A stretch of 64,000 nt of DNA from an uncultured bacterium (GCA_959020415.1 CAUERX010000003.1:5783-69782), one strand, 5' to 3'. Positions 62,154 to 63,292 are shown, counted from the first letter of the stretch. A program made the numbers and translations. The notes: generated by a model from the sequence alone, not told the origin.

Positions 62154-62182
62154 TTGTCAAATTTCATAAAATAAGGTATACT
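62154..62182 (+). promoter_or_regulatory. Sigma-A promoter of the tRNA / T-box / gatCAB unit
   Basis: TTGTCA (62154-59), a 17-nt spacer, then TATACT (62177-82), 18 nt before tRNA-Ile. Confidence 0.65.
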
Positions 62183-62199
62183 TATAAAGTCGATTAGAT

Positions 62200-62276
62200 G
62201 GGCCTGTAGCTCAGTTGGTTAGAGCACACGCTTGATAAGCGTGGGGTCGTAGGTTCAAGTCCTACCAGGCCCACCA
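62200..62276 (+). tRNA. tRNA-Ile (anticodon GAT), CCA encoded
   Basis: GGGCCTG/CAGGCCC acceptor, anticodon loop CT-GAT-AA, T-arm GTAGG-TTCAAGT-CCTAC. Confidence 0.92.
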
Positions 62277-62285
62277 TTTTTATTT

Positions 62286-62362
62286 GGTCCGTTGGTGAAG
62301 CGGTTTAACACACATGCCTTTCACGCATGCATTCACGGGTTCAAATCCCGTACGGACTACCA
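62286..62362 (+). tRNA. tRNA-Glu (anticodon TTC), CCA encoded
   Basis: GGTCCGT acceptor, anticodon stem CATGC/GCATG with loop CT-TTC-AC, T-arm ACGGG-TTCAAAT-CCCGT. Confidence 0.88.
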
Positions 62363-62394
62363 AAATTTGTTTTTAAGTTAATTTTATATAAATA

Positions 62395-62648
62395 CGAAGA
62401 AGTGGAAGAGTAATATTTGAACCCTTATTCCTAGAAAGCTAGAACGATGGAAGCTAGCAATAAGCCAAATATGAAAAACACCACGGAGTAATTTGTCTGA
62501 AGTAATAGTAGGATAAGTCGGCTGTAATCCGTTACCATATTATAAGTTTCTTAAGAAACTATAAAGAGATCACGCAAGTGATAAGTAAGGTGGTACCGCG
62601 AATTACAGTTTTTCGTCCTTATAACAAGGGATGTTTGGCTGTTTTTTT
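62395..62648 (+). promoter_or_regulatory. T-box riboswitch leader, probable Asn (AAC) specifier
   Basis: T-box sequence AAGGTGGTACCGCG (62587-600). An antiterminator can be drawn: AAGG/CCTT, a 7-nt bulge TGGTACC, and GCGAA/TTCGT. It competes with the terminator hairpin at 62606-41 plus T7. The specifier context GAAA-AAC-A (AAC at 62477-79) sits next to the stem I closing pair GTGG/CCAC. Confidence 0.8.
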
Positions 62649-62657
62649 ATTATATTT

Positions 62658-62733
62658 GCCTAATTAGCTCGGTTGGTAGAGCAAACGGCTGTTAACCGTT
62701 GGGTCGTAGGTTCGAGTCCTACATTAGGCGCCA
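62658..62733 (+). tRNA. tRNA-Asn (anticodon GTT) copy 1
   Basis: Acceptor GCCTAAT/ATTAGGC, loop CT-GTT-AA, discriminator G, then CCA. Confidence 0.9.
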
Positions 62734-62738
62734 TTTCT

Positions 62739-62814
62739 GCTCAATTAGCTCAGTTGGTAGAGCAAACGGCTGTTAACCGTTGGGTCGTAGGTTCGAGTCC
62801 TACATTGAGCGCCA
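62739..62814 (+). tRNA. tRNA-Asn (anticodon GTT) copy 2
   Basis: The body is essentially the same as copy 1 (one D-loop base differs). Acceptor GCTCAAT/ATTGAGC shows compensatory changes. Confidence 0.9.
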
Positions 62815-62819
62815 CATAT

Positions 62820-62895
62820 GCCTGATTAGCTCAGTTGGTAGAGCAAACGGCTGTTAACCGTTGGGTCGTAGGTTCGAGTCCTACATCAGGCGCCA
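62820..62895 (+). tRNA. tRNA-Asn (anticodon GTT) copy 3
   Basis: Identical body to copy 2. Acceptor GCCTGAT/ATCAGGC. Confidence 0.9.
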
Positions 62896-62935
62896 CTTTG
62901 TTAATAAATAAAGGAAGCTTTATTTAATTATAGTA

Positions 62936-62968
62936 GGGCGTAGGTATATATCCTACTGCCCGTTTTTT
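62936..62968 (+). terminator. Hairpin + T6 between the tRNA-Asn array and gatC
   Basis: GGGCGTAGG-tatatat-CCTAC(t)GCCC-G-TTTTTT. It ends 19 nt before the gatC ATG. Confidence 0.6.
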
Positions 62969-62986
62969 GTATAAGGAGGTATTTCA

Positions 62987-63292
62987 ATGGGAGAAAGTGC
63001 AAAATTTACGAAAGAAATGGTCGATGATTATGCAGATAAGTTATTAATTGGTTTAACACCGGAAGAAAATAAACAGGTTTTAGATGAATTTGAAATCATT
63101 GATGCAAATATTGATTTAATTAATGAAATTCCAGATATTTCAAAGGTTAAACCAATGACACATGCACTTGATAATTTTGAGTGTAGTTTTAGGGAAGATG
63201 TAGTGGAAGAATCGATATCAATTGAAGATTTACTTGCAAACTGTGATGAATCTGATGATGGTGAAGTTGAAGTACCAAGGATGGTGGGATAG
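62987..63292 (+). CDS. gatC: Asp/Glu-tRNA(Asn/Gln) amidotransferase subunit C
   Basis: 101 aa with a GatC-like DEFEIIDANIDLINE...VKPMTH pattern. AAGGAGG RBS. Followed by gatA. Confidence 0.85.
   Translation: MGESAKFTKEMVDDYADKLLIGLTPEENKQVLDEFEIIDANIDLINEIPDISKVKPMTHALDNFECSFREDVVEESISIEDLLANCDESDDGEVEVPRMVG

Follow-up and report, generated by a model that had tools for sequence, protein, structure and literature searches.

In this study, we analyzed a 64,000-nt stretch of DNA from an uncultured bacterium (GCA_959020415.1, CAUERX010000003.1:5783-69782; this whole stretch is hereafter called the window) and found, near its 3' end, a T-box leader, a tRNA-sensing riboswitch, placed inside a tRNA operon. 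Genes for tRNA-Ile and tRNA-Glu lie on its 5' side, and three tRNA-Asn genes, gatC and gatA follow on its 3' side (Table 1). The promoter, tRNA-Ile, tRNA-Glu, a T-box specific for Asn, the three tRNA-Asn genes, a partial terminator, gatC, gatA and, by homology, gatB and aspS probably make up a single unit, in which the T-box would gate the genes of its own ligand. We hold this reading, which is based throughout on comparative sequence evidence, with good though not full confidence.

The RNA element itself was identified clearly. The Rfam T-box model RF00230 matched positions 62388-62623 of the + strand over its full length (1-219 of 219), reaching 129.5 bits (gathering score 93; E 1.9e-28). 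The earlier note on this DNA had called a canonical T-box and had named this covariance model as the check on it; the call passed that check, and all of its coordinates were right, including the T-box 14-mer AAGGTGGTACCGCG (62587-62600), the antiterminator, and the terminator with its run of seven T residues ending at 62648. A 7-nt bulge, UGGUACC (62591-62597), interrupts the antiterminator, and its UGGU is complementary to the 3' GCCA of tRNA-Asn. The terminator hairpin (62605-62642) had a folding energy of -14.2 kcal/mol (z -4.67), and none of 200 shuffled sequences was equally stable. The 5' strand of this hairpin shares nucleotides with the antiterminator's 3' strand; therefore, the two structures are mutually exclusive. 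The first tRNA-Asn gene begins only 9 nt past the end of the U-run (62642-62648). Sequence tests thus found all the features of RF00230 membership, namely the score, the specifier loop, the UGGNACC antiterminator, the exclusive terminator and the pairing of UGGN with the discriminator end, and by every such sequence criterion the RNA in the window is an ordinary member of the T-box family. What differs is its position, which is outside the usual T-box context, the 5' mRNA leader of a synthetase, biosynthesis or transport gene: it has tRNA genes on both sides and no promoter of its own. However, an mRNA leader is the usual location of T-boxes and not a defining feature of the RNA family.

A survey of synteny in related genomes found the same arrangement in 55 species genomes. 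One genome per GTDB species was scanned for the T-box 12-mer GGTGGNACCRCG followed within 48-78 nt by the tRNA D-arm TAGCTCRGTTGGTAGAGC, which gave 65 loci (designated by L numbers): 55 Asn loci, seven Phe loci and three chance matches (L014, L016 and L039). In the 55 Asn loci, one to six tRNA-Asn(GUU) genes start 53-72 nt from the start of the 12-mer. When 49 of the Asn loci were tested, 48 had a T-box above the gathering score (117-152 bits), the exception being L037, which has a short leader. Judged from these sequences, recurrence in 55 species genomes is far beyond chance. The record titles name uncultured Bacilli, Tenericutes, Erysipelotrichaceae and Mollicutes as well as Candidatus Coprosoma intestinipullorum, and the few other names probably reflect binning. 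The closest relative, L047 (UMGS841), is about 98-99% identical to the window across the locus.

Pair counting in relatives supported both alternative structures. Among 34 distinct expression-platform sequences, with the antiterminator helices and the outer terminator stem pooled, 99.0% of cells were paired, as against 40-59% when partners were slid. Double-sided changes occurred in five pairs, four of them among the six pairs of the outer terminator stem, and helix A1 of the antiterminator showed a compensatory change from A-U to G-C. The observed covariation score was attained by none of 500 shuffles. Compensatory changes were therefore present in antiterminator and terminator alike, which indicates that both conformations are under selection, as a working switch predicts. 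A clean run of U5-U8 follows the terminator in about 38 loci, the window included.

However, the terminator is not of the same form everywhere. In about 15 loci, which we call class B (L002, L003, L022, L023, L027, L036, L037, L040, L042, L051, L054, L055, L061 and L065), a real T-box (120-147 bits where tested against Rfam) carries a short competing hairpin, TTCGTCC with GGACGAA, and no U-run after it. UGGC and a separate promoter are present in most of these T-boxes. The class B hairpin has no Shine-Dalgarno sequence to sequester, since a tRNA gene comes next.

With regard to specificity, the covariance-model register places AAC in the specifier position, and the Asn assignment that had been made from the context GAAA-AAC-A held: every Asn-type locus has GAA-N-AAC-A, where N is mostly T and otherwise G or A, so that AAC alone is invariant. 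The variable base of UGGN is U or C across the Asn loci, never A or G, and one clade has UGGC. It had been objected that UGGU would face G73 in these tRNA-Asn genes and form a G-U pair. This pair is indeed present, but it is not a problem: U opposite G73 is a tolerated wobble, and the UGGC of the one clade gives a Watson-Crick pair with G73. Likewise, U:G73 occurs in 46% of the Trp T-boxes of TBDB (PMC7778990). Dual Asn/Glu specificity, of the kind reported for the NT-box discussed below, was considered and rejected; the overlapping GAAC on which it depends is not conserved, the context being AAAC in the window, TAAC in most relatives, and GAAC or AAAC in the others.

Promoter analysis revealed how the tRNA-Asn genes may be reached. 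The promoter of the unit, TTGTCA/TATACT, was kept at an equal distance before tRNA-Ile in 22 related loci; tRNA-Ile lies about 390 nt ahead of the T-box 12-mer in about 25 loci, and tRNA-Glu about 304 nt ahead of it in about 29. All loci that lack the upstream tRNA-Ile and tRNA-Glu have a near-perfect TTGACA-17-TATAAT directly before the T-box, all loci that possess them have TTGTCA-17-TATACT before tRNA-Ile, and in the latter no canonical promoter was found in the 25-30 nt spacer between tRNA-Glu and the T-box. When promoters were scored, 41 of 54 loci had a match of at least 10/12 at the start of the unit (nine of them perfect), 48 of 56 had no match of at least 9/12 between T-box and tRNA, and none of 45 attained 10/12 between array and gatC. 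In the window, the + strand promoter scan listed none between 62183 and 63400. In nearly all loci, the tRNA starts about 5 to 15 nt past the end of the U-run, and the spacers between tRNA genes are 3-10 nt. Since no promoter fits between the T-box and the tRNAs or between one tRNA and the next, the tRNA-Asn genes can be reached only by read-through of the T-box terminator. The earlier note had argued in this way from the start of the first tRNA-Asn at 62658, which leaves no room for a promoter, and both the 9-nt gap and the empty scan bear it out; its further proposal, that read-through is fed from the promoter at 62154 by way of tRNA-Ile and tRNA-Glu, agrees with the promoter placement in relatives. 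The T-box of the window would then be a conditional internal terminator in a tRNA operon and would also serve tRNA-Ile and tRNA-Glu as their default terminator.

ARAGORN and the Rfam tRNA model agreed on six tRNA genes in the window (tRNA-Lys, tRNA-Ile, tRNA-Glu and three tRNA-Asn). All three tRNA-Asn copies carry G73 and an encoded CCA, and they differ from one another solely by compensatory changes in the acceptor stem (CCTAAT, CTCAAT and CCTGAT). Copy 1 has G at position 14 (62671), where tRNAs nearly always have A, as do the other two copies and the near-identical copy in L047; this could mark a slightly defective copy or be a sequencing error. Among the fetched loci, 145 of 149 tRNA-Asn genes have G1-C72, and these window-type genes all have G73 and an encoded CCA. 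The usual pair in bacterial tRNA-Asn is U1-A72. Bacterial GatCAB is reported to recognize it positively in tRNA-Gln and tRNA-Asn (PMC2330236), and bacteria with the indirect pathways are said to have kept it (PMC2330236; PMC4206432). The tRNA-Asn genes of the window lack this identity element, all of them having G1-C72; therefore, either asnS is present elsewhere in the genome or GatCAB accepts G1-C72. No synthetase was found among the ten largest open reading frames in the first 55 kb of the window, which covers 64 kb of the genome, so that asnS was not seen there. Use of the indirect Asn pathway at this locus is thus unproven. Asn makes up 6.8% of the residues encoded in the window (29% GC), with 907 AAT against 123 AAC codons (about 7 to 1), all served by one anticodon, and the decoding demand for Asn in an AT-rich genome is a plausible rationale for a gated tRNA-Asn.

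Several side observations concern the tRNA genes of this region. In L047 (4400-5034), a fourth tRNA-Asn isodecoder (GCTTGAA...TTCAAGC) stands upstream of the T-box, fused to the 5' part of tRNA-Ile, and the acceptor stem of one gated copy is mismatched and chimeric; such mismatches were seen in 8 of the 149 tRNA-Asn genes. The fusion could have arisen by recombination among tRNA repeats or by assembly collapse in a metagenome-assembled genome (MAG), and the possibility of such collapse makes the tRNA copy numbers in MAGs lower bounds. The tRNA-Lys(CUU) gene of the window (60277-60352, A73) is solitary, with its own promoter-like site at 60163-60191 and a terminator-like hairpin at 60363-60386, and several relatives have kept it close to the locus, on one strand or the other.

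The 91-nt spacer between the array and gatC folds into two hairpins. Hairpins of different sequence occupy the place of hairpin 1 in the closest relatives (L030, L038 and L059). Hairpin 2 (62936-62961) has a 9-bp stem with one bulge and is followed by G and U6, ending 18 nt before the gatC start codon; as a stem-loop containing G+C with a U-run behind it, 62936-62968 has the form of an intrinsic terminator. Thus, the earlier statement that gatC and gatA follow the array was correct as to the two reading frames, at 62987-63292 and from 63294 on, but it had passed over a conserved hairpin and U-run that intervenes. An Rfam search of the spacer at a permissive threshold gave only chance-level matches (E > 1) and no family for hairpin 2. 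Its sequence resembles the T-arm of the adjacent tRNA-Asn (GGGCGTAGGT..CCTAC vs GGGTCGTAGGT..CCTAC), and hairpin 2 may be derived from the remnant of a tRNA copy that turned into a terminator.

Among the 42 loci with gatC, 31 have a hairpin and U-run before it, with several unrelated hairpin sequences; these post-array hairpins were judged by folding each sequence, the alignment being too gappy for pair counts. In eight of the 42, a run of U7-U8 comes right after the tRNA CCA and the gap to gatC is 19-46 nt. The remaining configuration, in three of the 42 (L008, L017 and L053), is a second complete Asn T-box that begins 8 nt past tRNA-Asn and ends just before gatC; in L008 (3340-3914), the order is T-box 1, tRNA-Asn, the 8-nt gap, T-box 2 and gatCAB, with asnS next. 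The short gaps and the tandem T-boxes show that in those lineages gatC and the tRNAs share a transcript. Hairpin 2 of the window is probably a partial terminator, from which gatCAB would receive attenuated read-through.

As for the protein genes, the GatC of most related loci shows 56-95% identity and that of three loci 37-41%, and the position of the gene is constant. In all window-like contigs, gatB and then aspS come after gatA (the near-identical L093, L137 and L140, and also L032), and the aspartate--tRNA ligase model NF001750 gave 731 bits on the L052 copy. The order gatB, asnS, aspS was found in L003, L008, L022 and L061 (asnS 621 bits), although aspS after asnS is visible in L022 only, the loci L003, L008 and L061 ending inside asnS. 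In L036 and L051, asnS is directly 3' of the tRNAs, and in L034 the Asn T-box is followed by tRNA-Asn and tRNA-Glu only. The link to gatCAB and the indirect Asn pathway that had been suggested for the window therefore stands only in part: an Asn T-box does lie upstream of gatCAB, but the link to the pathway is weakened by the G1-C72 tRNA-Asn and by the asnS gene in the operon of some relatives.

Table 1. Features of the T-box and tRNA operon in the window (positions counted from the first nucleotide of the window)
Feature	Position	Strand	Details	Basis
Promoter of the unit, 5' of tRNA-Ile	62154..62182	+	TTGTCA-17-TATACT	Consensus scan, 10/12 matches
tRNA-Ile(GAU)	62200..62276	+	Operon gene 1; ungated (5' of T-box)	ARAGORN; Rfam, 76.5 bits
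tRNA-Glu(UUC)	62286..62362	+	Second ungated gene; ends 25 nt before T-box match	ARAGORN; Rfam, 63.4 bits
T-box leader	62388..62648	+	62388-62623, Stem I through antiterminator; terminator with U-run, ending at 62648	RF00230 and fold
Specifier codon AAC (Asn)	62477..62479	+	Context GAA-A-AAC-A, 62473-62480	Covariance-model register
Antiterminator	62587..62620	+	A1, 62587-62590 with 62617-62620; A2, 62598-62602 with 62612-62616	Covariance-model alignment
T-box terminator	62605..62648	+	Outer stem, 62605-62610 with 62637-62642; inner stem, 62614-62620 with 62627-62633; U-run, 62642-62648	
tRNA-Asn(GUU) copy 1	62658..62733	+	G1-C72, G73, encoded CCA, G14	ARAGORN; Rfam, 68.8 bits
tRNA-Asn(GUU) copy 2	62739..62814	+	5-nt spacer after copy 1	ARAGORN; Rfam, 73.7 bits
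tRNA-Asn(GUU) copy 3	62820..62895	+	5-nt spacer after copy 2	ARAGORN; Rfam, 73.1 bits
Spacer hairpin 1	62906..62925	+	AAATAAAG-GAAG-CTTTATTT	Fold
Spacer hairpin 2	62936..62968	+	GGGCGTAGG-loop-CCTACTGCCC and U6 (62963-62968); terminator-like	Fold
gatC	62987..63292	+	Open reading frame	TIGR00135 (NCBIfam), 45.2 bits, just under cut-off 47.1
gatA, 5' part	63294..64000	+	Runs off the window	TIGR00132, 261.9 bits on 235-residue fragment

From this anatomy we infer tRNA-dependent read-through at the T-box, a leaky second terminator and a physiological logic as follows. A polymerase starting from the promoter at 62154-62182 would always make tRNA-Ile and tRNA-Glu. In the leader, the AAC specifier would pair with the GUU anticodon of tRNA-Asn. 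If the bound tRNA-Asn is uncharged, its 3' GCCA would pair with the UGGU bulge and stabilize the antiterminator, and the polymerase would enter the three tRNA-Asn genes; if it is aminoacylated, the terminator and U7 would form and transcription would end at about 62648. Past the array, the unregulated hairpin with its U6 would pass a fraction of polymerases into gatCAB (and aspS), giving a high ratio of tRNA to mRNA, and the tRNAs would be released by RNase P and 3' processing enzymes. When the charged fraction of tRNA-Asn falls, a rise in total tRNA-Asn and in the enzymes that act on it would thus be expected. On the amount of tRNA alone such feedback would be positive, and it would be damped by the co-induced enzymes and by competing charged tRNA.

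Four other explanations have to be weighed against this. The least probable of them, which we regard as nearly untenable, is that a hidden promoter within the 3' part of the leader serves the three tRNA-Asn genes, so that the T-box controls nothing downstream except by accident. Nothing was found in its favour, beyond the weak -10-like hexamers that occur because the region is AT-rich, and it conflicts with the 9 nt between U-run and tRNA 5' end, where a -10 element at 62651-62656 would put the start site inside the tRNA, as well as with the absence of + strand promoters from 62183 to 63400 and of any match of at least 9/12 in the T-box to tRNA region of 48 of 56 loci; an independent tRNA-Asn promoter was rejected on this spacing and scoring. 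It is also very improbable that the leader answers to tRNA-Lys, alone or together with tRNA-Asn, through an overlapping AAA one base upstream (AAAAC) and through pairing of UGGU with A73. An A does precede AAC in the window and its closest relatives, which gives AAA, the tRNA-Lys of the window carries A73, a perfect partner of UGGU, and a passage of PMC4574755 cites Foy 2010 for a Bacillus cereus lysK T-box (AAA) that is partly responsive to tRNA-Asn. However, the triplet in the -1 register is TAA in most relatives and GAA or AAA in the others, and the Lys register, which the earlier note had raised as a caveat, was rejected since AAA is not kept and AAC is the only invariant triplet. In addition, the UGGC clade fits G73 and not A73, the downstream genes are tRNA-Asn, asnS or gatCAB-aspS and never Lys genes, and the sole tRNA-Lys of the window has the anticodon CUU and reads AAG. 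Some cross-talk with tRNA-Lys(UUU) may occur in the window, but comparison of the relatives gave nothing that backs it. Similarly remote is the idea that the T-box is a decayed or constitutively read-through relic, tRNA-Asn having moved in behind an old leader, ahead of the gatCAB or asnS genes that this leader once served, and being expressed without regulation. The class B relatives, with no U-run after the T-box hairpin, and the ease with which tRNA arrays expand and contract (copy number 1 to 6) would fit such a history, but the scores of 117-152 bits in 48 of 49 loci, the terminator stem kept by compensatory changes with a clean U5-U8 in about 38 loci, and the L008-type loci, which retain a separate T-box for the tRNA alone, all speak against it.

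More serious, though still unlikely, is the possibility that the T-box gates the tRNA-Asn array alone. The hairpin at 62936-62968 would then be an efficient terminator that ends the unit, and gatCAB-aspS would be transcribed from a weak promoter of its own, an extended -10 without a -35 overlapping the 5' arm of the hairpin, so that transcripts from this promoter would lack the terminator. In that case, gatCAB would be outside Asn control and might serve Gln-tRNA only. The retention of a hairpin and U-run at this site in 31 of 42 loci with several unrelated sequences, the AT-rich -10-like hexamers (TATAGT, GATAAT) noticed by eye just 5' of the hairpin in many loci, and the G1-C72 of tRNA-Asn, reportedly not accepted by bacterial GatCAB, all favour a separate gatCAB unit. 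Yet none of 45 loci had a promoter match of at least 10/12 there, though near-consensus promoters are used elsewhere in these genomes, and in eight loci gatC starts as close as 19-46 nt behind the tRNA. Moreover, the second Asn T-box directly before gatC in L008, L017 and L053 implies that gatCAB is co-transcribed and regulated by Asn there, and asnS within the operon of four relatives implies that the operon is related to Asn.

The single gated unit therefore appears to be the better explanation, but several points weigh against it. Positive feedback on the ligand is an unusual design, for which we found no precedent. The hairpin and U6 before gatC could terminate efficiently, and gatCAB would then require another promoter, and the G1-C72 of tRNA-Asn argues against canonical use of GatCAB. 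Because class B loci lack the U-run, termination cannot be the mechanism everywhere. The isodecoder in L047 hints that ungated tRNA-Asn genes may exist, which would make the gated copies supplementary. Finally, the scan selected for the arrangement itself, and the 55 genomes are not a frequency within the clade.

We also asked how general such an arrangement is. With confidence only a little better than even, we propose direct gating by T-boxes of the genes for their own tRNA ligand in a broad clade of gut Bacilli, uncultured and low in GC, as a hitherto undescribed class of targets that would tune tRNA supply to charging, that is packaged with the charging enzymes (gatCAB-aspS or asnS), and that recurs independently for Phe and Tyr. 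A Phe T-box followed by tRNA-Phe was found in Paenibacillus filicis (three tRNA copies) and in a Paenibacillus MAG. The loci L020 (6657-7201, P. filicis KACC14197), L029 and L158 have an Rfam-positive T-box with the specifier GAA-G-TTC-R and one to three tRNA-Phe genes. No synthetase gene was found downstream on the same strand in L029, which resembles a tRNA-only T-box unit; the L020 locus extends only about 1.1 kb beyond the T-box, too short to judge whether a synthetase follows. Short leaders resembling a Phe T-box (L031 and L050, also L011, L021 and L033) are below the gathering score; their specifier, GAA-T-TTC-A, precedes the 12-mer by about 72 nt, and their terminator is clean. They occur in Erysipelotrichaceae-type MAGs and are followed by tRNA-Phe, with pheS and pheT next in L031 and L050. 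In L156, L183 and L021, a short Phe T-box and a tRNA-Phe-like gene precede a gene for a 371-residue protein with PF01409 and PF03147 (FDX-ACB). Its domains suggest a class II core of phenylalanyl-tRNA synthetase (PheRS) joined to FDX-ACB, the single-chain architecture known from mitochondrial PheRS. The anticodon loop of the L156 gene is GAAAAAA, and ARAGORN called its anticodon as AAA.

A metagenome scan that was neutral to tRNA type gave at least 120 loci. Among the matches listed, the downstream anticodon fitted the specifier for Asn (about 22 loci), Phe (about 19 loci) and a Tyr case. Matches followed by Ser, Leu, Gly, Arg, His, Cys, Val or Pro tRNAs were set aside as chance occurrences of the 12-mer, having no specifier, and none of the subset tested against Rfam was a T-box. 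In the Tyr case (L113 and L097, environmental contigs of about 36% GC), the T-boxes score 98.3 and 96.6 bits, respectively, and the specifier is UAC. The tRNA-Tyr(GUA) is 76 nt long and has C1-G72 and a short variable arm, as in the archaeal/eukaryal type, and it is followed by a 297-residue open reading frame, a protein with a YbaK-type editing domain (PF04073) and a 377-residue class I synthetase of Trp/Tyr type (PF00579). This looks like a self-contained pair of tRNA and synthetase under T-box control. By these sequences, a layout of T-box, cognate tRNA and charging enzyme recurs for Asn, Phe and Tyr.

Some other features of the window are unrelated to this operon. A MobV-family relaxase (26340-27788, - strand, 83 bits), together with a gene that weakly matched a TrlF-family AAA-like ATPase (32480-34615, + strand), suggests an integrated mobilizable element or island in the middle of the window. 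At 9654-12180, genes of the YfmF and YfmH families adjoin each other, YfmH passing the NCBIfam cut-off with 302.7 bits and YfmF, with 249.5, falling short of its own (285); both families have been linked to the 5-aminopentanol modification of EF-P.

If T-boxes also control tRNA genes, they have more kinds of target than are now listed. A T-box/tRNA class would be missed systematically by TBDB and other databases in which the downstream gene is taken from protein annotation. A sensor that controls its own ligand raises the question of how runaway induction or lock-out is avoided, and further questions concern the sensing of demand for Asn decoding in AT-rich genomes and the use of a downstream partial terminator to fix the ratio of tRNA to enzyme. 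The proposed circuit would bundle tRNA-Asn, GatCAB and aspartyl-tRNA synthetase, the components of the transamidosome, in one regulon. The G1-C72 pair of its tRNA-Asn calls the generality of the GatCAB identity rule into question: if the reading is true and asnS is absent, a bacterial GatCAB would accept G1-C72 tRNA-Asn and break the reported U1-A72 rule.

The usual T-box regulon consists of synthetase, biosynthesis and transport genes and does not include tRNA genes. The earlier note knew of no T-box directly before tRNA genes, and our literature search likewise found no description of one, although most subscription journals were outside the search and a prior description is possible. tRNA genes are not mentioned as T-box targets in the TBDB paper (PMC7778990) or in a 2020 review (PMC7583486), and an early genome survey reported no T-boxes upstream of amidotransferase genes (PMC2494555). 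Passages of PMC4206432 and PMC4574755 cite an Asn T-box of aspS-gatCAB in Clostridium acetobutylicum.

That system is the closest described one. It shares with the window an Asn-specifier transcriptional T-box upstream of gatCAB, and its operon contains aspS, a gene that on our side was seen in relatives (L032, L093, L137 and L140), the window itself ending inside gatA. Work attributed to Saad and colleagues, from 2012 and 2013, reportedly showed that this Asn "NT-box" controls the aspS-gatCAB transamidation operon. In the loci studied here, by contrast, gatC is preceded by one to six tRNA-Asn genes, which directly follow the T-box and would be the first and main genes under its control. The T-box is inside a tRNA operon and not at the 5' end of an mRNA, and a terminator-like hairpin parts the tRNAs from gatC. 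In addition, the overlapping Asn/Glu GAAC of the NT-box is absent from the window (AAAC) and not conserved in its relatives, and the tRNA-Asn has G1-C72.

With canonical transcriptional T-boxes, such as those of Bacillus subtilis tyrS and glyQS, the leader shares all RNA features, and it would sense uncharged tRNA alike, through the anticodon and the NCCA end. In contrast to them, it would regulate its ligand's own genes, and the circuit would feed back on the input of the sensor and not on the charging enzyme alone. Tandem T-boxes are known, for example from B. subtilis thrZ and the trp operons of some Bacillus, and L008, L017 and L053 likewise have two Asn T-boxes in series before gatC. Here, however, tRNA-Asn lies between the two, so that the first T-box alone would govern the tRNA and both would govern gatCAB, whereas the window has a plain hairpin and U-run in the place of the second T-box. 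Mixed operons of tRNA and protein genes are also familiar, as in thrU-tyrU-glyT-thrT-tufB of Escherichia coli, where tRNAs are co-transcribed with a gene for a protein related to translation and released by processing, as would be the case here. That operon has no riboswitch, and its tRNAs are not the ligand of an element on their own transcript, which is what the T-box of the window appears to add.

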